A stretch of 64,000 bases of DNA, taken from positions 17,003 to 81,002 of the forward strand of contig LNEJ01000027.1 of the NCBI GenBank assembly GCA_001464965.1. Reading direction: 5' to 3'. This document shows positions 21,651 to 54,387 of this stretch, one piece after another. The number at the start of each line of letters is the position of its first letter. Position 1 is the stretch's first letter. The DNA is from Gammaproteobacteria bacterium Ga0074134 (GTDB lineage: Bacteria > Pseudomonadota > Gammaproteobacteria > Ga0077554 > Ga007554). The notes under the pieces are model-generated. The model searched no databases and had not been told where the DNA came from. It saw nothing but the letters and a program-made list of their open reading frames with translations. The position numbers and the translations under genes were made by a program.

Positions 21651-21775
21651 TCCTCGGTACATGGAGGTGCTGGCATTTTTCGATCACGGAAAGTGATTTT
21701 AAAATGAAGAAAAGAAAAAACACACTATGCTTTTCGTGCTCTGAGAATTCCAGGATGGAATGATTCAGAGCTTCC
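21626..21775. repeat. family 1 repeat, copy C (full)
   Basis: Perfect hairpin ggaacctctgaataatgcagaggttcc plus the aatgaagaaaag...ctctgagaattccaggatggaatgattcagagcttccttaat module. Confidence 0.6.
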
Positions 21776-21926: not shown

Positions 21927-21983
21927 AAAACCCGTGGTCCCATTTACGGCCCCCTTGCTTTGTTTGATAGACTTAAAAAATCC

Positions 21984-22913
21984 ATGACAAATATTATCGT
22001 TGCTGCCTTGTACAAATTTGCAAAACTGCCTGACTACCGGGACATGCAGCCGGGTATGCTCGATTTTTGCGTCGCACAAGGGCTGAAGGGAACCCTGCTG
22101 CTTGCTGCCGAAGGCATTAACGGCACCGTCGCAGGCACCCGTGCCGGGATTGATGCCCTGATTGCATTTCTGCGCGCGGATGCGCGGCTTGCGGACTTGG
22201 AGCACAAGGAATCTTATGCCGCTGAAATGCCTTTTTACAGGATGAAGGTTCGCCTGAAAAAGGAAATCGTCACGCTGGGTGTGCCGGGCGTCGATCCAAA
22301 CGAGAAGGTCGGTATCCGGGTGGCCCCGGAAGATTGGAATGCCCTGATCTCTGACCCTGATGTGGTACTGATTGATACACGAAATGGCTATGAATACGAT
22401 ATTGGCACTTTTCGCGGTGCGGTTGATCCCGATACTGATACATTCCGCGAATTTCCGGACTATGTCAGCAAAAACCTCGACCCCGTAAAACATAAAAAGG
22501 TCGCCATGTTTTGCACCGGCGGCATTCGCTGTGAAAAAGCCACATCCTTCATGCTGGAGCAGGGATTCGAAGAGGTCTATCACCTGCAAGGTGGTATTCT
22601 AAAATATCTGGAAAAGATCCCCGCTGAAAAAAGCCTGTGGGAAGGCGAATGTTTTGTGTTTGACCAGCGTGTGGCTGTCGGGCATGGTCTGGCATTGGGT
22701 GAATATGACCAATGCCATGCCTGCCGTTACCCCGTGTCTCCACAAGAAAAAGCCTCGCCAAAATACCAGGAGGGCATATCCTGTCCACACTGTTTCGACT
22801 CTCTGACGGAAGAGAAGCGCGTCAGCTCGGCGGAGCGGCAAAAACAAGTCGAGTTGGCGCTCAAGCGGGGCACGGCACACCTCGGTGCGCCGCAGAAAAA
22901 GCGAGGCGCTTAA
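21984..22913 (+). CDS. trhO: rhodanese-domain tRNA U34 hydroxylase TrhO (YceA family)
   Basis: [18 protein letters not shown]... with the rhodanese active-site CTGGIRCEK and a C-terminal Cys cluster. Confidence 0.8.
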
Positions 22914-22988
22914 TGAGGAAAAGCAAAAATCATATTTTTTGCTTTTCGTGCTCTGAGAATTCCAGGATGGAATTATTCAGAGCTTTCT
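22913..22988. repeat. family 1 repeat, copy D (module 2 only)
   Basis: aatgaggaaaagcaaaaatcatattttttgcttttcgtgctctgagaattccaggatggaattattcagagc begins at the trhO stop codon. Confidence 0.5.
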
Positions 22989-22991
22989 ATA

Positions 22992-24461
22992 TCAAGATGA
23001 GCAACTCACTGTAATGTGACGAGCCCATTCCGGCGGCGTTGCAGCATAATCCTCCATCCCCGGCTGTTCGCTAAAAGGATCTTGGAGCAATTTCAACAGT
23101 CGGTCTACTTCTGAAAAATCGCGCCCCTGTTCGGCCTTGTTGATGGCGGTCTGCGCCAAATGATTGCGTAGAATGTACTTTGGATTGACTTTGTCCATGC
23201 GTATTTTGCGTTCCTCATCCGAACCTTGTTCCCGTTGCAAGCGGGCGCGGTAAGATTCACTCCAGGCATCGAACGCTGTGCGGTCTATGAATTGGTCGCG
23301 CAACGCAGTGTTTTTCTCGCCGGGTGCCGAGTTGAAATTTCCTAAGCCGCGGAACAGGTTGGTGTAGTCGGCCTGGCTGGTGTGCATCATCTCCAAAAGC
23401 GTATTAATCAGTGTATCGTCTTCCTTGCTTGCGTGAGCCAAGCCCAGCTTCTGCCCCATCAATTCCGTATAATGTTTGGCGTATGCCGGGCCATAGTTTT
23501 GAAGTGCTGCTTCCGCATCTTCCATCGCAATGACCGGCGTCAATGCCTGTGCCAGGCAGGCGAGATTCCATAGGCCGATTTGTGGCTGTTGATTATAGGC
23601 GTAGCGCCCGGCAGGGTCGGAATGGTTACAGATATAACCGGGATCGTAATTTTCCATGAAGCCGAACGGGCCATAATCAAAGGTGAGCCCCAGGATAGAC
23701 ATGTTGTCGGTGTTCATGACGCCGTGGGAGAATCCCACGGCTTGCCATCGGGCCATCAGGGTTGCGGTGCGCGTTACGACTTCATCGAGAAAGCGCGAGT
23801 ATTTGTCCGGTGCGTCCATCAAGGGTGGGAAATGCTTGGCGATCACGTAATCGGCAAGCATCGCAAGGAGCTGGTTCTGTCCACGATAAAAAAATACTTC
23901 AAATGAACCAAAGCGTACGTGCGAAGGCGCGATGCGCGTAACCACCGCAGCAGTTTCAGCGGTCTCGCGGTAAACCCTGTGATCGCTGCCCACGATACAC
24001 AGGGCGCGTGTGGTAGGGATGCCCAGGCCATGCATGGCCTCCGAGCACAAATACTCACGGATGCTGGAGCGAAGCACGGCGCGGCCATCGCCATTTCGCG
24101 AGTACGGGGTACGCCCGGCGCCTTTGAGCTGGATATCCCAGTATTCCCCCGCGCTATTCTTTATTTCACCGAGCAATACGGCGCGCCCATCTCCCAGTTG
24201 CGGCACATAGTGGCCAAACTGATGTCCCGCATAGAGCATCGCCAGCGGCTCGCAACCGGGCAGCAAACGGTTGCCGCTGAAATATTCAGCGAAGTCAGCG
24301 CGCTGGGTTTCGGCGCTGTCCAGGTCAATCAACGGGGCGGCGTTCGTGTTGAAGCTAACCAGATAGGGATCAGGCAACGGGGTGGGGTGGAGGCGGCTGT
24401 GGAATATGTCCGGCAGGCGGGCAAACGTATTATCAAATCCAAGCTGTTCAAGTTTTCGCAT
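22992..24461 (-). CDS. selO: protein adenylyltransferase SelO (YdiU/UPF0061)
   Basis: 489 aa. N-terminus ...FARLPDIF..; AGHQFGHYVPQLGDGRAVLLGE; the kinase-like fold motifs of SelO. Confidence 0.85.
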   Translation of the reverse strand: MRKLEQLGFDNTFARLPDIFHSRLHPTPLPDPYLVSFNTNAAPLIDLDSAETQRADFAEYFSGNRLLPGCEPLAMLYAGHQFGHYVPQLGDGRAVLLGEIKNSAGEYWDIQLKGAGRTPYSRNGDGRAVLRSSIREYLCSEAMHGLGIPTTRALCIVGSDHRVYRETAETAAVVTRIAPSHVRFGSFEVFFYRGQNQLLAMLADYVIAKHFPPLMDAPDKYSRFLDEVVTRTATLMARWQAVGFSHGVMNTDNMSILGLTFDYGPFGFMENYDPGYICNHSDPAGRYAYNQQPQIGLWNLACLAQALTPVIAMEDAEAALQNYGPAYAKHYTELMGQKLGLAHASKEDDTLINTLLEMMHTSQADYTNLFRGLGNFNSAPGEKNTALRDQFIDRTAFDAWSESYRARLQREQGSDEERKIRMDKVNPKYILRNHLAQTAINKAEQGRDFSEVDRLLKLLQDPFSEQPGMEDYAATPPEWARHITVSCSS

Positions 24462-29241: not shown

Positions 29242-29685
29242 ATGGATAGCCTGCCCTCATTTTTGCGTGATAGCGAAGCCGCCGGGATGTATTTGCTTGA
29301 TACGGCGATTACCGCGATGGAGTTTGAAAGCGAGGCCAGGAAGTGTGGCTTCGCTTTTTTTTATCTGGAAGGAGGGAGCATCCTCAGTAAGGAGCAATTT
29401 TTGGAGCAGATCGCCCGCGCCATGGATTTTCCCGGCTATTTCGGTGGCAACTGGGACGCACTGGAAGACTGTCTCACGGATCTATCCTGGCGTGAAGCAC
29501 CAGGTTATGTGATTCTATACGACCATTTTGATGTTTTTGCCGAGCAGTTTCCGGATCAGTTCGAGACCGCGCTGGAAATTCTGGATGCGTCCATAGAGTT
29601 CTGGCGCGCGCAAGGTAAGCCGCTGTTTGTCATGTTGCGCGGAAAGGGTGGGCCGGAGTGGGGGTTGAAGCTGCTTACCTTCTAA
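29242..29685 (+). CDS. barstar-family ribonuclease inhibitor
   Basis: Barstar motifs ...FGGNWDALEDCLTDL... The start codon is 3 nt after the RNase stop. Confidence 0.75.
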   Translation: MDSLPSFLRDSEAAGMYLLDTAITAMEFESEARKCGFAFFYLEGGSILSKEQFLEQIARAMDFPGYFGGNWDALEDCLTDLSWREAPGYVILYDHFDVFAEQFPDQFETALEILDASIEFWRAQGKPLFVMLRGKGGPEWGLKLLTF

Positions 29686-29687
29686 GA

Positions 29688-29800
29688 ACCCTGTTCACGA
29701 TCTCGCTGAAGGGTGCATCGCGGCGTTAAAAATAGCCTCAAAATGCTCACATACTCCGTGTATGCTGCGCTTTTTCGGCTATTTTTGCCTTAACGGAGTG
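29688..29800. repeat. family 2 repeat (left half: gaaccctgttcacgatctcgctgaagggtgcatcgcggcgttaaaa...ctcaaaatgctcacatactc...)
   Basis: Matches the left TIR and core of the full copy at 36866-37008. The right TIR is absent. Confidence 0.45.
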
Positions 29801-34100: not shown

Positions 34101-34370
34101 GTAAACAAGGTTGCCGAGGGCCGCCCCCACATTGTCGATATGATTAAAAACGACGAAATCAGTCTGATTATCAACACTACGGAAGGCAAGCAGGCGATTG
34201 CGGATTCCTATGAAATCCGGCGTGCCGCATTGCAGCACAAAGTCACCCACAGCACTACACTGGCTGGCGCCAGGGCGACGTGCCTGGCCCTGCGGCAACC
34301 GGATGACCGCGCGGTGAATCGTTTGCAGGATCTGCATCAGGAATTACTCGGGAGAAAGATAACAGCATGA
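31134..34370 (+). CDS. carB: carbamoyl-phosphate synthase large subunit
   Basis: 1078 aa with duplicated ATP-grasp halves and a C-terminal MGS-like domain. Confidence 0.95.
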
Positions 34371-34843
34371 GCAAAGTGCCGATGACAGCGAAGGGCGCGC
34401 AGCAGTTGCGCGAAGAGCTGCAGGAATTAAAGAGCGTTGCAAGGCCGCGCGTTATCCAGGCTATCGCAGAGGCCCGCGCGCATGGCGACCTGAAGGAAAA
34501 TGCCGAATATGCCGCCGCCAAGGAACAACAAAGTTTTATTGAAGGGCGCATCTCGGAAATCGAGGGGCAACTCTCCAACGCCCAGATCATTGATGTTGCG
34601 ACAGTGAATGCCAATGGCAGGATCGTCTTTGGCACCACGGTGGATCTGGTGAACGTCAAGACCAGCGAGGAAGTAACCTATCAGATCGTAGGTGATCTGG
34701 AGGCCGACATCAAGCAAGGCAAAATCTCGATCAGCTCTCCCATCGCCCGCGCCCTGATCGGCAAGGAAGAGGGCGACATCGCCGTGGTGCGTGCGCCGGG
34801 TGGTGAAATCGAGTATGAGATTGCGGCTGTAAAATATATATGA
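34367..34843 (+). CDS. greA: transcription elongation factor GreA
   Basis: [20 protein letters not shown]...[20 protein letters not shown]. Confidence 0.9.
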
Positions 34844-34848
34844 GCCAG

Positions 34849-35112
34849 AGCCTATCCGTAAATAAATCACCCCTGCGTTGCCGCCCCAAAACGCGCCAGG
34901 CAAGGCGCGAGGAGAGAAATTTGGTGATTCCAAATGAACGACGAGCAACGCCGCCTGGCGTGTTTTGGGGCGCAACCCGAAGGGACGGGGCCGGTTTTGA
35001 GCAGTGCGGCGTCACGCTTCGCTCATGTGCAACAAGCACACTACGCTCAGCCTTCCTTGCCCTGCTCAAAACCGGTCTCCGTCGCAGGGATGATTTATTT
35101 ACGGATAGGCTC
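34849..35112. mobile_element. 264-bp MITE-like element with about 30-bp terminal inverted repeats, copy 1
   Basis: gagcctatccgtaaataaatcacccctgcg ... cgcagggatgatttatttacggataggctc. The interior is the reverse complement of the interior of the 46461-46726 copy. Confidence 0.65.
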
Positions 35113-35116
35113 TAAC

Positions 35117-35584
35117 ATGCGTTTCGCGCTCGTCAGTGAACGGATTTTGTTGACCCTGTGGGTCGGTGGCCTGTGGGGTATCGGTTACCTCGCCGTGCCG
35201 GTGCTGTTTAATATGCTCAATGACCGGCAGTTGGCAGGGGAGCTTGCCGGGAAAATGTTCAGCATCACCAGCATCATAGGTTTGGTGTTCGGCGTTTTGC
35301 TGTTGATAGGCGCGATTTACCGGGCGGGCGACAAATGGACCCGTGCCTGGCGGGTGTGGACGCTGTTCGCCATGCTGGCGTTTGTTGCCGTCAGTTTCTT
35401 TGTTTTGCAGCCGATGATGCAGGACCTCAAAGCCCATGGTCTGGTTGAAGGCAGCGCCCAGGCGGCGAGCTTTGGACGGCTGCACGGAATTTCGTCGATA
35501 CTGTATCTGGCGACCAGCCTGCTGGGGGTGGGGCTGGTGATTGCAGGTCCAGGCGGGAAACGGCCTTCCAGGTATACGCTTTAG
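35117..35584 (+). CDS. DUF4149-family integral membrane protein
   Basis: Four predicted TM helices, MRFALVSERILLTLWVGGLWGIGYLAVPVLF... The start lies immediately after the MITE, and the ORF-track 5' extension is MITE sequence. Confidence 0.6.
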   Translation: MRFALVSERILLTLWVGGLWGIGYLAVPVLFNMLNDRQLAGELAGKMFSITSIIGLVFGVLLLIGAIYRAGDKWTRAWRVWTLFAMLAFVAVSFFVLQPMMQDLKAHGLVEGSAQAASFGRLHGISSILYLATSLLGVGLVIAGPGGKRPSRYTL

Positions 35585-35618
35585 AGCCGGTTCACGATCT
35601 CGCTGAAGGGCGCCCCGC
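35584..35618. repeat. family 2 repeat, short fragment (ggttcacgatctcgctgaagggcgc)
   Basis: Matches the left TIR region of 36866-37008. Confidence 0.3.
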
Positions 35619-35653
35619 CAAGCTTTGCGCCGCAACCCAATACATTGTCCCTC

Positions 35654-35947
35654 TCAGGTGACCGTGATACGCGGTTTGTCCTGATTGCGCAGATAAATCA
35701 GTGCGATATGGCCGATACGTTGCACCAGCGTGGCGCGTGTGCTGTTGCAAATTTCATCTATCATATGGTCACGCGCGGCGCGGTCGGCGGCGTTTACCCG
35801 GATCTTGATCAGCTCATGATGGTTCAGGGCCAACCCTGTTTCGTTGAGCACAGCCTCCGTCAGGCCAGCATTTCCAATGATGATCACCGGCTTTAATTTA
35901 TGGCCGAGCGTCCGCAAATAACGTTTGTTTTTCTCAGTAAGTGACAT
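35654..35947 (-). CDS. yhbY: ribosome assembly RNA-binding protein YhbY (CRS1/YhbY domain)
   Basis: LTEKNKRYLRTLGHKLKPVIIIGNAGLTEAVLNE...HELIKIRV. It is divergent from rlmE, as in enterobacteria. Confidence 0.75.
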   Translation of the reverse strand: MSLTEKNKRYLRTLGHKLKPVIIIGNAGLTEAVLNETGLALNHHELIKIRVNAADRAARDHMIDEICNSTRATLVQRIGHIALIYLRNQDKPRITVT

Positions 35948-36235
35948 ATAAAGTATCGATGGCCAAAGATAATGGTAAGCGGGAAAGTATAGCACAACGC
36001 AGGCGCGGCTTCATGGTGGCGGCCAGCCCGATGAATGCCGTAAAGCTTGAGCTGGCTGTCATATGCTGCGCTGGTGTGCTGCTATGGCTGGTGCAGGGGC
36101 GCGTTACGGATAACCAGATGGTCCAGCTCCTTCTGCTGGGCGGGTATGGGTGCGCAGGGATGTTGTGGATCGTTTTCCGCGCGCGGCGTGTGCTGACCAG
36201 GGCACAATCCAGTCAATATGATGAACGCCGGAATT

Positions 36236-36856
36236 ATGGCCAGGAGTAAAAGCAGCAGCCGCTGGCTGAAAGAGCATTTTGTTGACGCCTACGTCAAAAA
36301 GTCGTGGCAGGATGGCTATCGTTCCCGCGCGGCTTATAAGCTGCTCGAAATCAACGAGCGCGACCACATACTGCGGCCAGGCATGACGATAGTGGACCTG
36401 GGTGCGGCGCCGGGTGGCTGGTCGCAGATAGCCGCAAATATAGTGGGGGATAAGGGCAAGGTGATCGCCACGGATATCCTGCTGATGGAACCCCTGGCTG
36501 GCGTTGATTTCCTGCAAGGTGATTTTCGGGAGCAGGAAGTATTTGACAAGCTGCTCGAAATGGTCGCAGGCCGTAACGTGGGGCTTGTAATTTCCGATAT
36601 GGCGCCTAATATAACTGGTATGGCCTCGGTTGATCAGCCGCGCGCGATGTATCTTGCCGAGCTGGCGTTGGATATGGCGCGTAAGATTCTGGTCCCAGGC
36701 GGGGATTTTTTGGTGAAGGTGTTTCAGGGCAGCGGTTTTGATGCCTTCCACAAGGAGATTCAGCCCTTGTTTCAGAAGGTGCTGATCCGCAAACCCAAGG
36801 CGTCGCGGCCCGGCAGCCGCGAAGTCTATGTGCTGGCGAGGAACTTTCTTGGCTGA
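36236..36856 (+). CDS. rlmE: 23S rRNA U2552 2'-O-methyltransferase RlmE (FtsJ)
   Basis: [33 protein letters not shown]...[11 protein letters not shown]. Confidence 0.85.
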
Positions 36857-36865
36857 AATAGTCCT

Positions 36866-37008
36866 TAGAACCTGTTCACGATCTCGCTGAAGGGCGCATC
36901 GCGGCGTTAAAAGTGGCCTCAAAATGCTCACATACTCGTGTATGCTCCGCTTTTTCGGCCACTTTTGCCTTGCGCTGCATCCCTTGATCGAGATCGTGAA
37001 CAGGTTCT
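36866..37008. repeat. family 2 repeat, full copy with 19-bp terminal inverted repeats (gaacctgttcacgatctcg / cgagatcgtgaacaggttc) and nested internal hairpins
   Basis: The inverted ends were read directly. Inner stem gtggcc...ggccac. Confidence 0.55.
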
Positions 37009-37126
37009 TATAAAAAAGCATGACGAAACGCCGGATTAGTGGCGAAAAACGCATGGTCTGATAAATGCATTATGGCCAGTGTTGGGTTGATATATACTGT
37101 ATTTCTCTTAAAGCTGAGGCGCACAC

Positions 37127-39058
37127 GTGAGTGATATGGCAAAGAATATAATCTTATGGGTGGTGATTGCCGTCATCCTGGTGTCGGTGTTTAATAATTT
37201 TGGCCCGCCTCAGGTTGCCTCGGCGCAACTTCCCTATTCGCAATTTATCGCGGATGTAAAGCAGGGTAATGTCCAGAAGGTTGTGATCGAAGGGCGCACT
37301 ATCCAGGGCATATACCAGAGTGGCGAAAAATTCGTCACCTATAGCCCCGGCGACCCCGGTCTGGTTGGCGATTTGCTTAACAAGGGCGTAGTCATCCAGG
37401 CTCGTCCGCAAGAGCAGCAGGGCGTGCTCATGCAGATGTTCATCTCCTGGTTCCCGATGCTGCTGCTGATTGGTGTGTGGATTTTCTTTATGCGCCAGAT
37501 GCAGGGCGGTGGCGGTGGCGGCCGTGGCGCAATGTCTTTTGGGCGCAGCCGTGCCCGGATGATGGGTGAGGATCAGGTCAAGGTAACTTTCGCGGATGTC
37601 GCAGGTGTGGAAGAGGCCAAGGAAGAAGTGGCTGAACTGGTCGAGTTTTTGCGCGACCCCAGCAAGTTCCAAAAGCTTGGTGGAAAAATCCCGCGCGGCG
37701 TGTTGATGGTAGGTTCGCCCGGTACCGGTAAGACGCTGCTGGCCAAGGCCATCGCAGGCGAGGCCAAGGTGCCGTTTTTCTCGATTTCCGGTTCGGATTT
37801 CGTGGAGATGTTCGTCGGCGTCGGCGCGGCGCGCGTGCGCGATATGTTCGAACAGGGCAAGAAACATGCGCCGTGCATCATCTTCATCGACGAAATTGAC
37901 GCCGTGGGCCGTCATCGTGGCGCCGGTTTGGGTGGCGGACATGACGAGCGCGAGCAGACCCTTAATCAGTTGCTGGTTGAAATGGATGGCTTTGAGGGCA
38001 GCGAGGGCGTGATCGTGATCGCGGCCACCAACCGTCCCGACGTGCTGGATCCCGCTTTGCTGCGTCCCGGCCGTTTCGATCGCCAGGTGGTGGTGCCGTT
38101 GCCCGATGTGCGTGGCCGTGAGCAGGTGCTCAAGGTGCATATGCGTAAAGTACCGATTGATGATGATGTCAAACCAGCGATTATTGCGCGTGGCACGCCG
38201 GGCTTTTCCGGTGCCGATCTCGCCAATCTGGTGAATGAGGCCGCTCTGTTTGCGGCGCGTGCCAACCGCCGCACCGTCGGCATGAACGACTTTGAAAAGG
38301 CCAAAGACAAGATCATGATGGGTGCGGAACGCCGCTCCATGGTGATGAACGACGAAGAGAAAAAACTTACTGCCTATCATGAGGCCGGCCATGCCATCGT
38401 GGGCTTGAGTGTGCCTGCTCATGACCCCGTGCATAAGGTGAGCATCATCCCGCGCGGTCGTGCTTTGGGTGTGACCATGTTCCTGCCGACAGAGGATCGT
38501 TACAGCTATAGCAAGCAACGCCTCGAAAGCCAGATTTCCAGCATGTTCGGCGGGCGGGTTGCCGAGGAGCTGATCTTCGGGCCGGAGGCTGTTACCACCG
38601 GCGCCAGCAATGATATCCAGCGCACAACCGAACTTGCCCGCAGCATGGTGACCAAGTGGGGCCTGTCCGAGAAACTTGGTCCATTGACGTATGCGGAGGA
38701 AGAGGGTGAGGTGTTCCTGGGCCGCTCCGTGACGCAGCACAAAGGGGTGTCGGATGAAACCGCGCATACCATCGACGGGGAAATCCGCACGATAGTCGAC
38801 CGCAACTACGAGCGTGCCAGGCAGATACTTACCGATAACATAGACAAGCTGCATGCCATGGCTGCCGCGCTGATCAAGTACGAGACCATCGATGCCGAGC
38901 AGATTGGCGATATCATGGCAGGCAAAGAGCCGCGTGCGCCGAAGGACTGGGGTGAAGATTCCGGGTCCAGTTCCGGGCGCGGTGCCAGCGCGGAGGCGTC
39001 CAGCGAGGGTGGCAAGCCTGCGGATGGCACGATAGGCGGGCCGGCAGGCCAACATTAG
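37127..39058 (+). CDS. ftsH: ATP-dependent zinc metalloprotease FtsH
   Basis: TM regions, AAA motif [11 protein letters not shown] region, and HEAGHA zinc site. Confidence 0.95.
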
Positions 39059-39122
39059 CCAGAGCGAGGGGCGGGTTGACCCGCCCCTATGTTAATACCT
39101 GCCCTTCAGTATCGTTTAAACA

Positions 39123-39944
39123 ATGGATTTTGCCGGGAAGCTGCTCGACCTCAATCAGCCCCAGGTAATGGGAATACTCAATGTCACCCCCGACTCCTTC
39201 TCGGACGGGGGTGTTTTTTTGTCCGCGCAAGCTGCATTTGCCGGGGCGCGGCGGATGGTCGAAGAGGGCGCGGCGATTATCGATGTGGGCGGTGAATCGA
39301 CACGTCCTGGTGCCGCTCCCGTTTCTGTTCAGGAAGAGCTGGATCGGGTCATCCCTGTTATTGAAATTCTTTCACGCGAACTCCCCATCATTGTTTCCAT
39401 AGATACCAGCAAGCCCGAAGTGATGCGTGCCGCGGTGGCCGCAGGGGCTGGTTTGATCAACGATGTCCGGGCGCTTAGTGAAGAAGGTGCGCTACAGGCC
39501 GCAGCGCAAGCTCGCGTGCCGGTATGCCTGATGCACATGCAGGGCGAGCCGCGCATCATGCAACACAGTCCGCACTATAATGATGTGGCCGCAGAGGTGG
39601 GATCCTTTCTGCTCGAACGGATCCATGCCTGTGTGGCGGCGGGGATTCCCCGTGCGCGGCTTTTGATCGATCCGGGTTTTGGGTTTGGCAAGGCTTTGGG
39701 GCATAATCTGCGCCTGTTTAAATATCTGGATTCTTTTTGTGGTCTGGCGCTGCCCCTGGTTGTGGGTGTATCGAGAAAATCCATGATTGGCGCAGTGCTG
39801 GAAAAGCCGGTGGATCAACGCCTCTATGGCAGTGTTGCCCTGGCGGCGCTTGCGGTTTGGCAGGGGGCCTCCATTATCCGCACGCATGATGTGCAGGCCA
39901 CCGCGGATGCAATAAAAATGGCGTGGGCTGTCAAGCAGGCATAG
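39123..39944 (+). CDS. folP: dihydropteroate synthase
   Basis: MGILNVTPDSFSDGG...IIDVGGESTRPGA. Confidence 0.9.
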   Translation: MDFAGKLLDLNQPQVMGILNVTPDSFSDGGVFLSAQAAFAGARRMVEEGAAIIDVGGESTRPGAAPVSVQEELDRVIPVIEILSRELPIIVSIDTSKPEVMRAAVAAGAGLINDVRALSEEGALQAAAQARVPVCLMHMQGEPRIMQHSPHYNDVAAEVGSFLLERIHACVAAGIPRARLLIDPGFGFGKALGHNLRLFKYLDSFCGLALPLVVGVSRKSMIGAVLEKPVDQRLYGSVALAALAVWQGASIIRTHDVQATADAIKMAWAVKQA

Positions 39945-40244
39945 GCGTGTGTTCAGCATAGAATAAACCTAAAAAGCAGCTAGCCACGGAGGACACAGAG
40001 TTCACAGAGAAAAAACCATTTCCCCATGATCACCATGAATCCCCTTGAAGGGGGGCAATGGGTGACAATGAGGGGGCAATGGGTTACCGTGAATATTACC
40101 CTCACCCGTCCGGTGATCAGGAATAAATACGATAACCCGTATCACCTCTGTGTTCTCTGTAGCTTGCATCTGCTGTTTTTAGGATAAATGGCCGGGTCAC
40201 GCTGCCCTGCTATCGGAAGAAACATAGATTTGAGGGGGTGAATA

Positions 40245-41603
40245 ATGAGCAAGGGCCAGCAAAGAAAGTATTTCGGCACGGACGGTATTCGCGGGTTGGT
40301 TGGAGAAACACCGATTACCGCGGAATTTGTGCTCAAGCTGGGCTGGGCAGCGGGACGTGTGCTGACCAAGGGCGGGCGCGGCAAAGTGCTGATCGGTAAA
40401 GATACCCGCATCTCTGGCTATATGCTTGAATCCGCGCTCCAGGCAGGATTGTCTTCCGCAGGCGTCGATATTCGCCTGCTGGGTCCCATGCCGACACCTG
40501 CCATCGCTTATTTGACCCGTACGCTGCATGCACAGGCGGGCATTGTCATCAGCGCGTCACACAATCCTTATCAGGATAACGGCATCAAGTTTTTTTCCGC
40601 GCGCGGGGAGAAACTTCCTGACGAGGTCGAGCTGGCCATAGAGGCGGAGCTGGATGAACCTATGCACACAGTGGATTCCTCACTGCTGGGCAAGGCCGAG
40701 CGTGTGGGCGATGCTGCGGGGCGGTACATTGAGTTTTGCAAAAGCACCATACCGGGCAATGTCGAGTTGCGCGGTATGAAGCTGGTGGTGGATTGCGCGC
40801 ATGGCGCGACATATCACGTGGCCCCGCACGTGTTCGAGGAACTGGGCGCCGAAGTTATCCGGCTGGGGGTGCAGCCCAACGGTCTTAACATCAACAAGGG
40901 CTGCGGCTCCACGCATCCTGAAGCCATGCAGGCCGCCGTGCTTGAGCACAAGGCGGATTTGGGTGTTGCGCTGGACGGTGATGGTGACCGGCTAATTATG
41001 GTGGATCACAAAGGCGAACTGGTGGACGGCGATGAACTGCTGTTTATCATCGCCCAATCGCGGCGCGAAGCCGGCAACCTCAAGGGTGCGGTAATTGGCA
41101 CGGTTATGAGCAACCTGGGTCTGGAACATGCCTTGTGCGCGCTTGGGGTGGACTTCCAGCGTGCGGCGGTGGGTGACCGTTACGTGATGGACCTGCTCCG
41201 TAAGGAAGGTGGGACGTTGGGCGGAGAATCGTCTGGCCATATCATCTGCCTGGATTGCACTACCACCGGTGATGGTATTGTGTCGGCATTGCAGGTGTTG
41301 GCGGCGCTTGTGCAATCCGGTCGTACGTTGCATGAGTTAAAGTCACGCATGGCAAAATACCCGCAGTGTCTGGTTAATGTGCGCACCGAGAAAAAATTCG
41401 ATTTTGCGGCATCCAGCCATGTGCAGGATGCATTGCGCGCGGTGGAGGCGCAGTTGGCGAGTAAAGGCCGTGTGCTGCTGCGTGCTTCCGGCACCGAGCC
41501 GTTAATACGTGTGATGGTGGAAGGTGTTGATCTACAGCAAGTTGAGACGCTGGCAAATTATTTGGCGGCGGCGGTTCGTCAGGCTTACGAAGCTGCAAAC
41601 TGA
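40245..41603 (+). CDS. glmM: phosphoglucosamine mutase
   Basis: YFGTDGIRG and the active-site serine loop [16 protein letters not shown]. Confidence 0.9.
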
Positions 41604-41638
41604 TTTTTTTCCACAGAACTAAATAATACGCGAAACCG

Positions 41639-43045
41639 ATGACGCTACACATCCATAATAGCCTGACCGGCAAAAAAGAACTTTTTATCCCCATCGAGCC
41701 CGGCAAAATCCGCATGTACGTGTGCGGCATGACCGTCTACGACTATTGTCACCTTGGCCATGCGCGAGTGATGGTGGTGTTTGATGCGGTGGTGCGTTAT
41801 CTGCGCGCGCTGGGCTATCAGGTCACCTATGTGCGCAATATTACCGATATCGACGACAAGATCATCAAACGCGCCGCCGAGAACCACGAAGACATTGATG
41901 CGCTCACCGGGCGTTTTATCGGCGCCATGCACGAGGATGAGCGGGCGCTGGGTGCGTTACCGCCGGATATCGAGCCGCGTGCGACAGAGTTCATCCCTGG
42001 GATTATCAGTCTGACACAGACGCTGATTGACAAGGGTTATGCCTATGTTGCCGCGAATGGTGATGTCTATTATGACGTGAGCCGCTTTGAACATTATGGC
42101 GAGCTTTCCGGCAAACGTTTGGAGGATTTGCGCGCCGGAAGCCGTGTGGAGGTGGACGAGGCCAAGGATGATCCATTGGATTTCGTGCTGTGGAAGGCCG
42201 CCAAGCCTGGCGAGCCGCGCTGGGACTCTCCGTGGGGGCCGGGCCGTCCCGGCTGGCACATCGAATGCTCCGCGATGTCCGGCCACTGCCTGGGGGATCA
42301 TTTTGATATCCATGGCGGTGGCATGGACCTGAAATTTCCGCACCATGAAAATGAGATCGCCCAGTCCGAAGGCGCCACAGGCCACAAATTCGTCAATGTA
42401 TGGATGCATAATGGTTTCGTGCAGGTGAACGAAGAGAAAATGTCCAAATCGCTGGGCAATTTTTTCACGGTACGCGAGGTGTTGAAGCACTATGCGCCGG
42501 AAATCGTGCGCTATTTCATTCTGGGCAGCCACTACCGTGGCCCGCTCACTTATTCCACGGAAAACCTGGACAATGCCAAGGCCGCGCTGGAGCGGTTTTA
42601 CATGGCATTACGCGGCTTGCCGGTCGTCAAAGAAGGGGGGGCGGAGACCGGAGGGCATGAGACAGAGTATGAGCAACGCTTCAGCGCCGCGATGGACGAT
42701 GACTTCAATACGCCGGGAGCGCTGGCGGTGATGTTCGAGCTGGTGCGCGATATCAATCGCGTGCGTAGCGAAAACATGCAAGAAGCCGCGCGGCTGGGAG
42801 CCGTGTTACGGCGGCTGGGTGGCGTGCTGGGGTTGCTGCAGGCCGATCCGGAGGGGTTTCTTAAAGATCCTACTAAAACCACGGCTGGTTTGTCATCCGA
42901 GGAAGTCGAACACCTCATTGCGCGGCGTGATTCAGCGAGACAGAGTAAAGATTGGGCCGAATCAGACCGCATCCGTGACTGGCTCAAGGCTCAGGGTGTC
43001 ATTCTGGAAGACAACGCTGGCAAAACCGCTTGGCGCAGGGAATAA
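41639..43045 (+). CDS. cysS: cysteine--tRNA ligase
   Basis: HIGH motif CHLGHARV and KMSKS motif KMSKSLGN. Confidence 0.9.
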
Positions 43046-43077
43046 TCCCGGATGGGTCGTCACCGTTGGAAGTTTTA

Positions 43078-43629
43078 TTAGCGATGACGGTCCCGCTGCC
43101 ACAGCACCTCCTGCCCGCCTTCAGCGCGTGCCAGCACGCGCGCGATGACAAACAACAGATCCGATAGGCGGTTAAGATAGGCGAGAGCTTCCCCGTTGAT
43201 TGTTTCGTTGCGTGCCAAGCTCACCACATGGCGTTCGGCACGTCGGCACACCGTGCGCGCCAAGTGGCATGTGGCTGCGGCAAGGCCGCCAGCGGGCAGG
43301 ATAAACTCTTTTAGGTAAGGCAGGCTGGCGTTGAATGCGTCCAGCGTGGTTTCCAGCCGCGCCACATCATCCGCCGTTATGGCACGATGCCCTGGAATGC
43401 AAAGTTCCCCGCCTAAATTGAATAAATCATGCTGAATGTCCGACAGGCAGGCATGCACCGCCTCGGGCGGGTTATGGGCCAGCACCATGCCGATCACGCT
43501 GTTAAGCTCATCCACTGTGCCATAAGCCTCTACACGCAGACTATCCTTCGCTACGCGTGAGCCGTCGCCCAGACCCGTGTCGCCCTGGTCGCCGGTGCGG
43601 GTGTAGATTTTTGAAAGTCGGTGTCCCAT
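43078..43629 (-). CDS. PduO-type ATP:cob(I)alamin adenosyltransferase
   Basis: IYTRTGDQGDTGLGDGSRVAKDSLRVEAYGTVDELNS. Confidence 0.75.
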   Translation of the reverse strand: MGHRLSKIYTRTGDQGDTGLGDGSRVAKDSLRVEAYGTVDELNSVIGMVLAHNPPEAVHACLSDIQHDLFNLGGELCIPGHRAITADDVARLETTLDAFNASLPYLKEFILPAGGLAAATCHLARTVCRRAERHVVSLARNETINGEALAYLNRLSDLLFVIARVLARAEGGQEVLWQRDRHR

Positions 43630-43681
43630 GTTGCCTGGCCTTTGCACGGTTTGTGTGTTGATAGCTGTGCCGAATGATGGT

Positions 43682-43758
43682 TGGTGCCCCGGATACGATT
43701 TGAACGTACGACCTTCCCCTTAGGAGGGGGATGCTCTATCCAGCTGAGCTACCGGGGC
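43682..43758 (-). tRNA. tRNA-Arg (anticodon CCT)
   Basis: The reverse complement folds as a cloverleaf GCCCCGG TA GCTC AGCTGGATA GAGC A TCCCC CTCCTAA GGGGA AGGTC GTACG TTCAAAT CGTAT CCGGGGC ACCA. Confidence 0.8.
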
Positions 43759-43798
43759 GTGGAGAAAGGAGTCAATGATGCCCCGGCTTGGGCGGGAT

Positions 43799-43874
<76 letters not shown>

Positions 43875-43955
43875 AAAAGTGGATTTAAGTTTTAAATGAT
43901 AAAAAGCCGGACATCTAAAATTACGCGGCATTGTACCATCGGGATGCGTTGGAGG

Positions 43956-44660
43956 CTATCCACCCTTGGGCATTTTTTTGATCTGCTCCCGTTCCAGGGC
44001 GATGATGTGGCGCTGGATGATTTTCTGTTGTGGCGTCGACATATTGATGAAGCGGCAACCGAGGCGGACAGGGGTGCTATTGTCCTTGTGGCGGATGGAA
44101 CGGATTTCCAGCATGCATCTTATCTCTTCATCCTGTGTTAAGCGAAAGCAGCAGGGCAGGGTATCGGTTGTTTTGAGCGTGACGGGCAGTTGCTTGTGCG
44201 CGACCCTGATGGAAAGGCCGCCTATTGAAAGGTCTTGCAGTTCCCCTTTTATTGTCTGGTCTTCCGCATGGATAAGAGTTACTGGGATGGGTTGTGCTAC
44301 CCCTGTTTTAACGCGGTAAGAAGCGCGTTGTTGCAGGTAATCGATTTCTGTGGGCAGTGCCAAGTTGTAATAGGCAATGCCGGATTCTCGGCCGGCGTCG
44401 ATCAGTGTGGTGGAAAAACTGATTCTGGCGCCTTCCACACGCGTCCGTGCGCGCAACTCTTTGATATCCAGAAGCAAGGGGTGGCCGCTTTCAGGACTAA
44501 GTTCATCTATGGCGAGATACGCTTGTTCTTCGTTAATTTCAAGTATGGCGCTGTTGTAGTTCTTGTCTGAGCCGGGCAGAGTGACAGTGAGTATTGCGCG
44601 CTGATTTTGGATGCGTTTTAAAAGGCCCAGGATGAAGGGGGCAAGAGTGATTCTGTCCAT
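43956..44660 (-). CDS. ycgR: YcgR-like flagellar brake protein (PilZ domain with an N-terminal YcgR-type domain)
   Basis: PilZ motifs QQRASYRV (RxxxR) and DLSIGGLSI (D/NxSxGG). Confidence 0.65.
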   Translation of the reverse strand: MDRITLAPFILGLLKRIQNQRAILTVTLPGSDKNYNSAILEINEEQAYLAIDELSPESGHPLLLDIKELRARTRVEGARISFSTTLIDAGRESGIAYYNLALPTEIDYLQQRASYRVKTGVAQPIPVTLIHAEDQTIKGELQDLSIGGLSIRVAHKQLPVTLKTTDTLPCCFRLTQDEEIRCMLEIRSIRHKDNSTPVRLGCRFINMSTPQQKIIQRHIIALEREQIKKMPKGG

Positions 44661-44738
44661 GATTATTTTTCTTCCGCCAATAACATAAGTAACGGATATT
44701 ACCCTGTAGATGTGTGATGTTTCGCTGTGTTTTTAGGG

Positions 44739-45230
44739 TTATGCCCGTCCCAGTGATTGTGCGCGGGATTTTGGTTGTGTAGCGCCAGTGGCGCTGTAGC
44801 AGCTCTCGCTTTCAGGAGGGTGGCCGCGCAAGATGGAGAGCGCCCGCTGGAGGTTGAGGCGGCTGATGGCGATGACTGCGCCATTGACCTGATTCTGTTG
44901 CTGGCATGCGGCGCTTAGCGCACGAAGCTTCCCCCAGGTGGGGCTAAGGTGGTGGATGCCATATGGGTCTTGGTCACGAATATAGCTTTCGATGCCTGCC
45001 GGGTTGGTGGAGTAACCTGCTGCACGCAGTATCTCTTCATGCTGTTTGATCAGCATGTCCAGCCGGGAGGCCAAGGGTTGTTTGCCGGCAACCGCCTGCT
45101 CGATGGCAGGTATATCGTTGCCGGCAAGGGCGGCATGTTCTTGCCGCAGGATGTCAAGCAGGGACGAGGCGGTGTTGATTTCATGCTCGAACAACGCACT
45201 GATTAACTGTTGATGTTCCGCTTCGGCCAT
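44739..45230 (-). CDS. flgN: flagellar export chaperone FlgN
   Basis: Position directly downstream of flgM. Helical FlgN-like sequence LLDILRQEHAALAGNDIPAIEQAV. Confidence 0.7.
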   Translation of the reverse strand: MAEAEHQQLISALFEHEINTASSLLDILRQEHAALAGNDIPAIEQAVAGKQPLASRLDMLIKQHEEILRAAGYSTNPAGIESYIRDQDPYGIHHLSPTWGKLRALSAACQQQNQVNGAVIAISRLNLQRALSILRGHPPESESCYSATGATQPKSRAQSLGRA

Positions 45231-45245
45231 TTACATATCCTTGAT

Positions 45246-45566
45246 TTATGCGGCGCGCCGGAGGTGCAGTGAGCTTTCGAAGCTCAAAAGTTTATCGGCC
45301 ACGCGCATTGGGTTAATCTCAAATGTGCCGCTGGCGACAGCTTGCTTGACGCCTTCGACACGGTGAATATCGACTACGGGCAAAGCGGACAGGGTCTTTT
45401 CCAGGCCGCGCAACCGTGCGGCGGTATCCGTGAAGCTGACAGTATCCACCGCGGAGGATTTACCGGTCTCCCGCTGCGCCGCATTGGGCTGGCGGACTGC
45501 AGACGTGTCGGCAGTGGTGGATGGGGCGGCATTTACGGGTGTTTTTCCGGTGATTTCAATGGGCAT
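45246..45566 (-). CDS. flgM: anti-sigma-28 factor FlgM
   Basis: C-terminal ...DIHRVEGVKQAVASGTFEINPMRVADKLL FlgM signature. Confidence 0.8.
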   Translation of the reverse strand: MPIEITGKTPVNAAPSTTADTSAVRQPNAAQRETGKSSAVDTVSFTDTAARLRGLEKTLSALPVVDIHRVEGVKQAVASGTFEINPMRVADKLLSFESSLHLRRAA

Positions 45567-45664
45567 GTTCTATACCTCTTCAGATGCTGTGCATAGGATA
45601 GCGGCTGATTCGGCCATTACTTTAAATCAAAAAGTACATGCACAGCAAATTATGGGACAATTCG

Positions 45665-46378
45665 TCAATTCCCTGTCACTTTAACTATTCCCTCGGCCAT
45701 TACCGTTCCCTCAACGACCCGTTGGGATGTGAGATTGCGAACCTGGATTAATGCCCCGGCGGCGCCGTCCATGAGCGCCTTTCCGGCCATGCGCACCTCA
45801 ATTCCAGCAATTTCCGCGAGAAGGGTGACTTGTGCTCCCCGCCGAACCACGCTCGGGGCCTCAAGCATGGCGGGAGTGTATACGGCACCGGGGTCTATTG
45901 AGCGTTTCAGAGTCATACCGAGGATTTGTTCGGGTGTGCTCAGGTAGCCGCCGGATAGGGAGGCGATGTTCAGTTCGGCGGTCTGGAAATCCTGGGCGGT
46001 TATCTGGCTGCCGCGGTTCAGTGCGTGGCTGGCGATCAAGGCGGGCGCAAAAATTTTGACGGTGACTGGCACATACAATGACCAGGGTTTAGGGCTGTGG
46101 CAACGTATCCCAATGTTAGATAAACCGAGGATGCGGCTGCCGGGCGGCAGGAAAGCCTCCGGTTTGTCCGCACAAACCGGAAGGCGCAGGCGGGTGTCCA
46201 GGACACCAACCTCTATATGCGGCGTTGCTGGCGCGTTTTGAATTTGTTGCTGCACGAAAGTTCTGGCGGTTTCGCGCAGCGAATCGTGGGATTGATACGT
46301 TTCGGCACGAACTTGCTGTGGCAGTAATGTGAATGCCGTAAAAAAAATTACTGCCCAAAAAATTGTATGGTATGGCAT
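45665..46378 (-). CDS. flgA: flagellar P-ring assembly chaperone FlgA
   Basis: Signal peptide and SAF domain. Heads the flgA-flgM-flgN operon. Confidence 0.8.
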   Translation of the reverse strand: MPYHTIFWAVIFFTAFTLLPQQVRAETYQSHDSLRETARTFVQQQIQNAPATPHIEVGVLDTRLRLPVCADKPEAFLPPGSRILGLSNIGIRCHSPKPWSLYVPVTVKIFAPALIASHALNRGSQITAQDFQTAELNIASLSGGYLSTPEQILGMTLKRSIDPGAVYTPAMLEAPSVVRRGAQVTLLAEIAGIEVRMAGKALMDGAAGALIQVRNLTSQRVVEGTVMAEGIVKVTGN

Positions 46379-46460
46379 GCCTTTGAGTAAGCAAAATATG
46401 AGCCAATCGGAATGTGAAAGCGCAGTTAAGGAGCTTGTGAAAAGCCGAGCCTATTTCTGA

Positions 46461-46726
46461 GAGCCTGTCTGTGAATAAATCATCCCTGCGACGGAGGCTG
46501 GTTTTGCGCAGGGCAAGGAACGCTGAGCGTAGTGTGCTTGTTGCACATGAGCGAAGCGTGACGCCGCACCGCGCAAAACCGGCCCCGTCCCTTCGGGTTG
46601 CTCCCCAAAACACGCCATGCGGCGTTGCTCGTCGTTTATTTGGAATCACCAAACTTCTCTCCTCGCGCCTTGCCTGGCGTGTTTTGGGGAGCAACGCAGG
46701 GATGATTTATTCACAGACAGGCTCTC
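46461..46726. mobile_element. 264-bp MITE-like element, copy 2 (inverted relative to copy 1)
   Basis: TIRs gagcctgtctgtgaataaatcatccctgcg / cgcagggatgatttattcacagacaggctc. Sits in the divergent flgA / cheV promoter region. Confidence 0.65.
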
Positions 46727-46735
46727 AGATATTGC

Positions 46736-46762
46736 TTAAGTATCGGGTTGCCGTGCCGATAT
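46736..46762 (+). promoter_or_regulatory. candidate sigma28 (FliA) promoter for cheV-cheR
   Basis: TTAAGTAT, 11-nt spacer, GCCGATAT, compared with the consensus TAAAGTTT-N11-GCCGATAA. It lies 38 nt upstream of the cheV ATG. Confidence 0.4.
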
Positions 46763-46800
46763 TTCGCATATCGATAAATGACGTTCTTAAGGAGAATGGC

Positions 46801-47748
46801 ATGGCAAGCGTATTGGATGATGTGGACAAGCGAACCAAGATGGTGGGGCAGAATCGGCTGGAGCTGTTGTTGTTTCGGTTGAATGACACGCAGTACTTTG
46901 GCATCAATGTTTTTAAGGTGCGTGAAGTTATTCAATGCCCCCCGCTGGCACATCTACCCAAAGCCCATCCTTCAATCTGCGGTGTTGCCACTATACGCGG
47001 CAAAACCATCCCTGTGATTGATCTGTCCATGGCTATAGGCCAGACGCCCATGGCAGATCCGGCGCGTGGTTATGTTATTGTCACAGAATATAACCGATCG
47101 GTTCAGGGATTGCTGGTGAATGGCATGGATCGTATCGTCAATATGAACTGGGAGTCAGTGCTGGCGCCACCCAAAGGTACGGGTTCCTGCAGCTATCTGA
47201 CGGCGGTGACGCGGCTCAATGACCAATTGATCGAGATCCTTGATGTGGAGAAGGTGTTTGCCGAGATTATCCATTGTTCTCTCACGGTTTCCGAGGATTT
47301 GGTTGAAGAGGGTGTTGCGCAACACGACATACAACCGCATGTGTTGGTTGTGGATGATTCCAGTGTGGCGCGCAATCAGATCAAACGCACTCTTGAGCAG
47401 ATGAAAATTTCGTATACCTTGGCGCCGGATGGTCGTGAGGCGCTGGAGTTGCTGAAAAAATGGGCGGACACTCAAGACCCTCTCTTGCAGCGTCTGAGTC
47501 TGGTGATTTCCGATATTGAAATGCCTGAAATGGACGGCTATACGTTGACGACCGAGATCCGCAAGGATGAACGCTTACGTAGCCTCTATGTCATGCTGCA
47601 TTCATCATTAAGCGGCGTATTCAACGATGCCATGGTGAAGAAAGTCGGCGCGGATGAGTTTATCGCAAAATTCAGTGCGGATGACCTTGCGGCGGCGGCC
47701 ATGAAGAGGATTAAAATGTACAGCGTAGGGAAAATTCAGGCCGCTTGA
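46801..47748 (+). CDS. cheV: chemotaxis protein CheV (CheW-like plus receiver domain)
   Basis: CheW-like LLLFRLNDTQYFGINVFKVREV plus REC HVLVVDDSSVARN...DIEMPEMDG. The start is placed after the MITE. Confidence 0.8.
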   Translation: MASVLDDVDKRTKMVGQNRLELLLFRLNDTQYFGINVFKVREVIQCPPLAHLPKAHPSICGVATIRGKTIPVIDLSMAIGQTPMADPARGYVIVTEYNRSVQGLLVNGMDRIVNMNWESVLAPPKGTGSCSYLTAVTRLNDQLIEILDVEKVFAEIIHCSLTVSEDLVEEGVAQHDIQPHVLVVDDSSVARNQIKRTLEQMKISYTLAPDGREALELLKKWADTQDPLLQRLSLVISDIEMPEMDGYTLTTEIRKDERLRSLYVMLHSSLSGVFNDAMVKKVGADEFIAKFSADDLAAAAMKRIKMYSVGKIQAA

Positions 47749-54224: not shown

Positions 54225-54372
54225 GGAACCTCTGATTTATTAGAGGTTCTGTGTGGTGCATGGACGCACCGCCATTTCTCGAACACGTACGTGTTCGAGA
54301 AATGAAGAAAAACAAAAATCACATTTTTCGTCTCTGAAAAATCCAGGGATGGATTTTTCAGAGTTCCCTTAA
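54223..54372. repeat. family 1 repeat, copy E (between flgH and flgI)
   Basis: Hairpin ggaacctctgatttattagaggttc plus aatgaagaaaaacaaaaatcacat...ctctgaaaaatccagggatggatttttcagag. Confidence 0.55.
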
Positions 54373-54387
54373 TAACAGGTTGGGTGC

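Follow-up and report, generated by a model that had tools for sequence, protein, structure and literature searches.

A Dispersed Non-Coding Element with IS5-Type Ends and a Conserved Interior Fold in Gammaproteobacteria

A palindromic sequence of 266-267 nt stands twice, in opposite orientation, in a 64,000-nt stretch of Gammaproteobacteria bacterium Ga0074134 (contig LNEJ01000027.1, positions 17,003 to 81,002; this whole stretch is hereafter called the window), once beside greA and once between flgA and cheV. What kind of element is it, how did it reach these two sites, and what keeps its interior in shape? We show that it is a non-coding insertion bounded by terminal inverted repeats (TIRs), that it is polymorphic among relatives, and that it combines IS5-type ends with a fold conserved through covariation. 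It belongs to a new family of miniature transposable elements with inverted repeats (MITEs) with an unusually constrained interior, the kind of element itself being ordinary. Very probably, it is a non-autonomous type II MITE with ends of the IS1031 type of the IS5 family, inserted by a transposase supplied in trans by an insertion sequence (IS) outside the window.

Two Inverted Copies with Long Terminal Inverted Repeats

Pairwise alignment placed the first copy (W1) at window positions 34847-35113 on the forward strand (267 nt, with the ends AGAGCC...GGCTCT) and the second copy (W2), its reverse complement, at positions 46460-46725 on the reverse strand (266 nt). The boundaries given for the two inverted copies in the original prediction, which was made from the letters of the window, were correct to within 1-2 nt. 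W1 and W2 are identical at 247 of 267 positions (92.5%; BLASTN E-value of about 1e-110), and their longest run of exact matches spans 48 nt, followed by runs of 28, 25, and 23 nt. A repeat search of the whole window also returned them as a 230-nt inverted match of 94% (34884-35113 versus 46460-46689).

The termini form inverted repeats on realignment, as had been proposed. The left and right TIRs of W1 (34847-34877 and 35083-35113), both 31 nt long, are complementary at 30 of 31 positions (97%) and pair as stem P1, and those of W2 (46460-46490 and 46695-46725) are complementary at 31 of 31. The TIR ends in both window copies read AATAAATCA[C/T]CCCTGCG. The 17-mer TIR core AATAAATCAYCCCTGCG occurs four times in the window without any mismatch, against a chance expectation of 0.36 at three mismatches or fewer. 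No further copy was detected in the 64-kb window with an nhmmer profile of the element family.

A Family Dispersed among Related Gammaproteobacteria

Loci fetched from related genomes, metagenomes, plasmids, and IMG/VR contigs are designated by L-numbers (L001, etc.). An exact-pattern scan of one genome per species detected the TIR in two metagenome-assembled genomes (MAGs) labelled Gammaproteobacteria, ND4_Bin_8 (JAKFXX01) and NC_groundwater_614 (JACPOZ01), and a metagenome scan added 17 more loci, nearly all of them in LNFM01. BLAST searches and extraction yielded 20 full copies, including W1 and W2, which measure 238-279 nt and occupy 19 different sites in at least four assemblies. The hosts of the other 18 are related groundwater and activated-carbon Gammaproteobacteria; full copies and remnants came from the two GTDB MAGs, the LNFM01 metagenome, and one JGI sample. 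Partial copies were found at contig ends in three cases, and one was truncated on its 5' side (L022). ND4_Bin_8 is a relative of the window organism, their FlgA proteins being 88% identical, and the window species itself is present in activated-carbon metagenomes. Flanking DNA was unrelated from site to site. Copies at separate loci of one assembly were 97.8% (L001/L002) or 98.6% (L017/L023) identical, pointing to a fairly recent spread of the family.

Both window sites were empty in relatives. The greA/DUF4149 junctions of relatives, fetched by way of DUF4149 protein orthologues, lacked the element in L030, L035/L036, and L031-L034. The flgA-cheV spacer is empty and measures 137 nt in L047 (FlgA 76% identical) versus 423 nt in the window; its edges match those of the window spacer, and its central ...ATATTTCATAAAT... 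aligns with the window sequence ATATC-TGA[element]TCA-GAAAT. This site was filled in L037, an independent assembly of the window species, and several short-read contigs (L039-L042) break inside the TIR. At the greA/DUF4149 junction, L035 has ATGAGTCTCTAACATG, which shares CTCTAAC with the right W1 junction, and L030 has ATGAGCCGCGCGATG, which shares ATGAGCC with the left one. We considered L035 as the exact empty site for W1 and rejected it, the spacer being too variable for the event to be rebuilt.

The element is thus short, devoid of coding capacity, bounded by TIRs in all full copies, dispersed, and polymorphic for presence or absence, which bears out its initial description as a MITE and argues against its being part of a conserved gene.

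Decay products were also observed, namely solo TIRs (L006:6450-6480, L009:2274-2301, and L019) and a 55-nt mini-element made of two TIRs (L020:3815-3875). A sub-lineage (L007:6374-6652, L012, and L022) carries a 12-nt insertion (CCCCTGTATATG) in arm B, one of the hairpin arms described below, together with an altered arm A tip.

Predicted Fold and Compensatory Changes

The internal inverted repeats noticed at the outset are part of a strong predicted fold, with a minimum free energy of about -163 to -165 kcal/mol (z = -15) on either strand. As a single strand of DNA or RNA, the element is predicted to form a four-way junction composed of the 31-bp TIR stem P1, two arms of about 100 nt, and a C-GNA-G mini-hairpin. 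In W1, arm A would occupy positions 34878-34975, the central mini-hairpin 34976-34984 (CCC-GAA-GGG), and arm B 34985-35082; in W2, arm B would lie at 46491-46588, the mini-hairpin at 46589-46597, and arm A at 46598-46694. The tip of arm A in W1 (34909-34945) is formed by the module GAGGAGAGAA-TTTGG-TGATT-CCAAA-TGAACGACGAG, which is kept across the superfamily. The triloop of the mini-hairpin varies only at its middle base among copies (GAA, GCA, or GGA), and such a G-N-A pattern is typical of very stable DNA mini-hairpins.

When the 20 copies were aligned, 98.9% of the pair cells were standard, compared with 37-45% in slid controls. Changes on both sides affected 12 pairs (25 cells), a level reached in none of 500 shuffles. 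Six double changes were private to single copies (L003, L025, L018, L002, L008, and W1), and matched TIR variants (ATCCGT/ACGGAT and GCCTGT/ACAGGC) were common to copies at different loci. What evolution has maintained is the fold rather than the sequence, and the upkeep of the palindromes may reflect selection on transposition-competent lineages or an intramolecular templated correction between arms.

Such a fold could also be that of a mobile structured RNA or a cis-regulatory RNA module that serves in the transcript for processing, stabilisation, attenuation, or translational coupling and is merely transported by the TIRs. We consider this unlikely. Very strong covariation of the arms, which extends across families (see below) and which no transposase needs, does speak for an RNA, but a search of Rfam returned no match at the gathering threshold or at E-values up to 10, apart from chance miRNA matches, and a known RNA family was therefore rejected. 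Deviations from standard pairing comprised 13-17 G-U versus 10 A-C within the family and 24 versus 19 in outgroups; these counts being similar, neither strand is favoured, and the attempt to assign the strand in this way revealed no clear asymmetry. Both strands fold equally well, and the element contains no promoter or terminator consensus.

Other functional readings were tried and rejected. The element does not appear to be an outward promoter or terminator, as neither a consensus sigma70 promoter nor an intrinsic terminator was found within it. An open reading frame (ORF) of about 60 codons extends from the ATG of the tip module and leaves the element at its right end; two of three frames are open anyway. 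As a small protein gene or N-terminal fusion module, this ORF was ruled out: 8 of the 20 copies have it interrupted or without a start codon, the start being ATA or GTA in four, its changes are mostly non-synonymous, only four codons exist in the Pseudomonas and Halomonas relatives, and its intactness is unlinked to the adjacency of a start codon. That this ORF is neither conserved nor associated with start-codon adjacency is also a point against an RNA module.

Ends, Target Sites, and Proposed Mobilisation

All copies end in GAGCCTGTCTGTGAATAAATCA. Over the first 10 nt, the element termini (GAGCCTGTCT) match the inverted repeat (IR) of ISLrh (GAACCTGTCT...) at nine positions. ISLrh is an 857-bp IS of the IS1031 subgroup with the IR GAACCTGTCTAGTATCT (PMC12016507), and this subgroup of the IS5 family is reported to insert at 5'-TNA-3' and to generate a 3-bp direct repeat (PMC12016507). 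A T-N-A triplet adjoins the right side of the element at all 19 independent sites (20 of 20 copies) and the left side at 16 of 19. The element was therefore probably mobilised in trans by a transposase of the IS1031 group, with insertion at T-N-A; in a genome of 55% GC, such targets mostly lie at stop codons and within the few A/T-rich bases in front of start codons. Neither the element, nor the rest of the window, nor the fetched relative loci (about 480 kb) contained an IS5-type transposase, in keeping with the initial view that the element is non-autonomous and that its parent IS is elsewhere or lost.

Several observations weigh against transposition of this type. A search for target-site duplications had been advised; the T-N-A flanks were indeed seen, but no clean duplication was, as the middle base N is identical on both sides at only 9 of 19 sites, complementary at 8, and neither at 2. 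Models of 1, 2, 3, and 4 bp were tried, none of which fits more than about half of the copies, and a 3-bp duplication is not demonstrated because the identity of N is about that expected for independent A/T-rich flanks. The left flank of W1 is aberrant (CCA at 34845-34847, versus TAA at 35113-35115 on the right) and lacks a clean empty-site match. Loose TIR searches of all loci, a plasmid BLAST with the TIR, an IMG/VR scan, and a tblastn search with an IS427-type transposase revealed no autonomous IS with GAGCCTGTCTGTGAATAAATC termini in the window, the fetched loci of about 480 kb, the plasmid collection, or IMG/VR. In addition, a MITE in neutral decay would not be expected to show compensatory changes in its arms.

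The flanks nonetheless contain a hint that they are not independent of each other, since where N is G or C the two triplets read TGA/TCA twice and TCA/TCA once. W2 is flanked by TGA (46458-46460) and TCA (46725-46727), and the empty site in L047 aligns best with TCA. If the empty site was TCA, the left triplet of W2 has changed from C to G, thereby lengthening the palindrome. Insertion may have produced a 3-bp duplication, part of which was afterwards turned into a perfect inverted repeat.

The lack of a clean duplication of N would also suit a palindrome moved as single-stranded DNA by a tyrosine or HUH enzyme of the REPIN/RAYT or IS200/IS605 type instead of a DDE transposase, as would the extensive hairpins kept by compensatory change and the C-GNA-G mini-hairpin, a motif of very stable DNA hairpins. 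This is very improbable: the long TIRs match IS5-family ends (those of ISLrh and, for the sister type presented below, those of the IS in L063), and the T-N-A and TA flanks are as expected of the IS1031 and IS427 groups. REP and REPIN units are GC-rich palindromes of 20-40 nt with a GTAG/CGTC tag, whereas the element is far larger, at 267 nt, has IS5-type TIRs, and is devoid of such tags. No RAYT or TnpA gene was seen beside any copy, though no systematic or genome-wide search was made.

Sister Elements with Other Ends

On plasmids, distant BLASTN matches fell in unannotated stretches between genes of Azotobacter chroococcum, Pseudomonas aeruginosa, Halomonas, and Candidatus Magnetococcus. They cover element positions 32-242 only, that is, the interior without the TIRs, and belong to sister elements of 264-265 nt with the ends GGGTCTGTTGACG...CGTCAACAGACCC, bordered by CTA and TAG, and the same four parts. 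Scans with the junction motif and the new terminus identified four sister elements of 263-267 nt with GGGCCTGTTAACAC termini in IMG/VR (L051, L053, L061, and L064). Two ISs of 810-817 bp in IMG/VR contigs (L063:6975-7782 and L057:8444-9260) also have GGGCCTGTTAACAC termini. In the 810-bp IS of L063, orfA (DUF4096) and orfB (DDE_Tnp_1) are joined at an A8 run, which is a frameshift site, and their fusion product matches the IS5 family transposase model NF033580 with 227 bits. Over 14-16 terminal nt, the sister MITE type agrees with this IS, whose size, two-ORF layout, and 2-bp TA flanks are those of the IS427 group (Paracoccus IS1248, etc.; PMC3281130).

Across families, sequence conservation is highest at the junction (GCGTTGC..., GCAACCCG-N-AGGGRCGGG, and ...CCGTCGC) and is also high in the tip module, GAGGAGAGAA-TTTGG-N5-CCAAA-TGAACGACGA. 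In a cross-family alignment of ten sequences, 93.5% of the cells were paired, versus 39-41% with slid partners. Both sides had changed in 59 of 100 pairs, of which 38 do not belong to the TIR stem, with a covariation score of 0.46 versus 0.09. Judging from these comparisons, the deeply conserved part is the interior and not the TIR, which the original prediction had missed. MITE families are usually defined by their TIRs and have an interior that drifts freely. Here, fold and length are conserved across Gammaproteobacteria, plasmids included, while termini, stems, and tips change, which is the reverse of the usual definition. MITEs mobilised by the IS427 and IS1031 groups may therefore need a particular structure during their life cycle, or else the fold has a function at the level of the host. 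Two features set the element apart, namely a four-way core of about 265 nt that elements with differing termini share in distant Proteobacteria, and a possible influence of orientation, described below.

An RNA module would account for a length that stays constant (263-267 nt) despite differing termini and tips, and for a tip made of a Shine-Dalgarno (SD)-like GGAGAG, a small hairpin, and ATGAACGACGA, which is kept from the window organism to Azotobacter, Pseudomonas, and Halomonas. However, the tip module does not keep its place: it is part of arm A in the window family, L061, and L064, whereas the type found in Azotobacter, Pseudomonas, and Halomonas carries it reverse-complemented in arm B, hence on the other arm and the other strand.

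The element could not be assigned to a named family: a literature search returned no description of it and no paper linking MITEs with IS1031 or IS427 that covers it. The search also gave no match for the terminus string of the sister type, the TIR string of the window element itself not having been searched for.

Possible Orientation Bias and Flipping

Many copies occupy tight gaps, in which the upstream ORF ends at the T-N-A, at a TAG that spans the junction, or at a TGA at element nt 13-15. Eight copies (W1, L002, L004, L005, L008, L015, L010, and L022) are followed, 2-7 nt past the arm-B end of the element, by an ATG that opens an ORF of at least 140 aa, versus none or one at the opposite end, the doubtful case being the 81-aa ORF of L003. 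As the two ends are identical in sequence, this split of 8 to 0-1 (two-sided binomial probability of about 0.01-0.04) suggests that the orientation of the interior matters where the element abuts a start codon, in a sample that is small and relies on ORF-based gene calls. Over all co-directional gene pairs, the split was only about 9:4.

This bias is a further argument for an RNA module, for which bcr1 of Bacillus, a transcribed cruciform-like repeat with compensatory changes, would be a precedent (PMC3184786). Yet the element is found in both orientations relative to flanking genes and is inverted at one orthologous site, and W2, lying between divergent promoters, is perhaps not transcribed. 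The orthologous site in question is shared by L001:1575-1841 (the ND4_Bin_8 site) and L024:1970-2236 (an LNFM01 contig), which carry the element at the same chromosomal site in opposite orientations. The flanks are identical at 137 of 150 positions, and the interiors at 253 of 267 when one is flipped versus 168 of 267 when it is not. An in-situ inversion via the TIRs, a second insertion at this site, or, less likely, a choice made during assembly are possible origins of this difference.

These observations leave room for a tentative idea, which we hold to be possible but doubtful, namely that the four-way core of about 265 nt (TIR stem, arms, mini-hairpin, and SD-hairpin-ATGAACGACGA tip) is a functional module that has been carried, or captured more than once, by different IS5-family ends. 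These ends would be of the IS1031 type here and of the IS427 type in Pseudomonadales, Halomonas, and others. If so, the fold might be needed for mobilisation, for example as single-stranded or cruciform DNA presenting the paired TIR duplex. Alternatively, it might act in the transcript in an orientation-dependent manner and so make an insertion 2-7 nt in front of a start codon tolerable to the gene. On this view, the concerted TIR variants and the complementary flank bases would result from gene conversion between palindrome arms, together with in-situ flipping of the kind considered for L001 versus L024. The family is a tractable case for distinguishing MITE hairpins that are selected from palindromes that merely correct themselves.

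The two window copies are inverted with respect to each other and about 11.3 kb apart, as had been noted, but the proposed inversion of the intervening segment found no support. L037 and L038, two independent contigs of the same species, show the window arrangement, carrying its junction and an interior purely of the W2 type. That the 11.3-kb segment inverts is only a theoretical possibility. For RecA-dependent exchange, identity and run lengths such as those of W1 and W2 suffice for rare events, which mismatch repair strongly disfavours.

Gene Context and Possible Effects at the Two Loci

Pfam matches and the annotation of neighbours gave the gene order greA, W1, DUF4149, yhbY, ftsJ, ftsH, folP, glmM, cysS, and a cobalamin adenosyltransferase gene, followed by tRNA-Arg, tRNA-Ala, pilZ/ycgR, flgN, flgM, flgA, W2, cheV, and cheR. 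The context initially described, with W1 between greA and the DUF4149 gene and W2 between the divergent flgA and cheV-cheR, is therefore accurate.

On the forward strand, greA (34367-34843) terminates with a TGA 3 nt before W1, and the DUF4149 gene (35117-35584) now starts 3 nt after it, encoding 155 aa versus 159 aa in L030. In L030, whose DUF4149 protein is 90% identical, greA and the DUF4149 gene overlap by ATGA (L030:1226-1229, ...aaatatatATGAGCCGCGCGATGCGTTT), which suggests translational coupling. The junction reads ...aaatatatATGAGTCTCTAACATGCGTTT in L035/L036 (DUF4149 protein 89% identical) and ...aaatatatATGAGCC[267 nt]AACATGCGTTT in the window. The window retains an ATGA at 34840-34843, which the MITE splits from the body of DUF4149, and comparison with L030 identifies the ATG at 34840 as the ancestral DUF4149 start, overlapping the greA stop. 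W1 thus sits between this ATG and a second one at 35117, which deprives DUF4149 of its first four codons and of whatever coupling to greA it had. These results are consistent with a landing of W1 within the start/stop overlap, after which DUF4149 would have to start at the ATG located 3 nt past the element. The only SD-like bases just upstream of this start are an AGG inside the TIR. Should W1 be co-transcribed with greA, the analogy with Correia elements suggests that its 31-bp stem would be a substrate of the RNase III type and would occlude the region just before the DUF4149 start codon, which is 3 nt beyond the stem.

W2 landed between the divergent flgA and cheV promoters. The start of flgA (45665-46378, reverse strand) lies 81 nt from the arm-B end of W2, and cheV (46801-47748, forward strand) is preceded, as had been predicted, by a sigma28-like promoter, TTAA-N15-GCCGATAT (46736-46763, forward strand), which stands 10 nt from W2 and is also kept in L047. 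A textbook form of the motif, TAAAGTTT...GCCGATA, is present at window position 59686, which makes the sigma28 reading reasonable. W2 moves the sequence upstream of the flgA and cheV promoters 266 bp away and leaves the sigma28-like promoter itself intact. Two loci have thus been rewired by the element, namely the presumably coupled pair of greA and DUF4149 and the region that controls flgA and cheV.

The element also matters for annotation and assembly. It breaks short-read assemblies, and it yields false ORFs and false N-terminal extensions, such as those suspected at first sight for CheV and DUF4149. Three artefact ORFs derived from it were identified, at 34840-35115, 34934-35584 (DUF4149 with an N-terminal extension), and 46471-47748 (CheV, likewise extended).

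Two further observations concern flgA. The sequence TGGCTCATATTTTGC (window 46391-46405, reverse strand) fits the -24/-12 spacing of sigma54 promoters and is conserved in L047 and L043, but it stands so close to the flgA ATG (13-27 nt upstream) that a promoter role is doubtful. In ND4_Bin_8 (L043:2085-2500), the sequence upstream of flgA consists of a 417-nt unrelated spacer and a 556-aa ORF without Pfam match instead of cheV, and the flgA-cheV junction is therefore rearranged in this genome.

Other Repeats in the Window

A second intergenic repeat family is present in four to five copies (3295-3385, 16587-16631, 21693-21780, 22902-22992, and 54291-54373) and consists of two successive hairpins, first GAAAAGCAAAAATCA...TTTTGCTTTTC and then GCTCTGAGAATTCC...GGAATTATTCAGAGC. 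A third family, of about 115 nt, was found at 29677-29791, 36858-36979, and 35574-35618, and inverted at 21810-21926. With a partial copy just 3' of DUF4149 and a full copy just 3' of ftsJ, the segment between the two MITEs is itself rich in repeats. Local duplications of 49-137 nt with 81-94% identity link 19594-19882 with 21552-22658; paralogous genes, or the duplication of a block at about 19.6-22.7 kb, may lie behind them. Finally, a 42-nt motif is repeated six times at 7181-8182 with a spacing of 177-240 nt (mostly about 180) and probably encodes a repeat-domain protein.

Comparison with Known Repeat Elements

With respect to its ends, the element resembles the IS1031 subgroup in nine of ten nt of GA(A/G)CCTGTCT and in the TNA form of its target (PMC12016507). 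It differs in its length of 267 nt without a transposase, in a TIR of 31 versus 17 nt, in a likeness that ends after about 10 nt, and in a 3-bp repeat seen in about half of the copies. ISs of the IS427 group are the type of autonomous partner of the sister MITEs, and their terminal motif, G-R-G-Y-CTGT, is related to that of the window element. In contrast, their termini diverge from those of the window element after the first 9 nt, and no such IS was found in the window organism.

Among the short palindromic repeats of other bacteria, ERIC/IRU and other enterobacterial MITEs are likewise imperfect palindromes of transcribed intergenic regions that can mask ribosome-binding sites; unlike the window element, ERIC/IRU is a single hairpin of 127 bp and of unrelated sequence. 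Correia elements (CREE/NEMIS) of Neisseria are also small, non-coding, bounded by TIRs, and inserted at TA-containing sites beside genes, and the long TIR stem of their transcripts is cleaved by RNase III (PMC10969869). They are, however, simple hairpins of 100-155 bp with a TA duplication, an IHF site, and a Neisseria-specific 26-nt TIR to which the TIR of the window element is unrelated, as is the remaining sequence, so that any likeness would be functional only. The bcr1 repeat of the Bacillus cereus group is MITE-like and has a cruciform-like terminal stem and two independent stem-loops with compensatory changes (PMC3184786). It differs in its size (about 155 bp), its 5-bp direct repeats, its occurrence in Firmicutes, and its unrelated sequence, and it is known to be transcribed. 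By analogy, bcr1 thus appears to be the closest counterpart of the element in architecture, and the Correia element in its likely effects at the level of the transcript.

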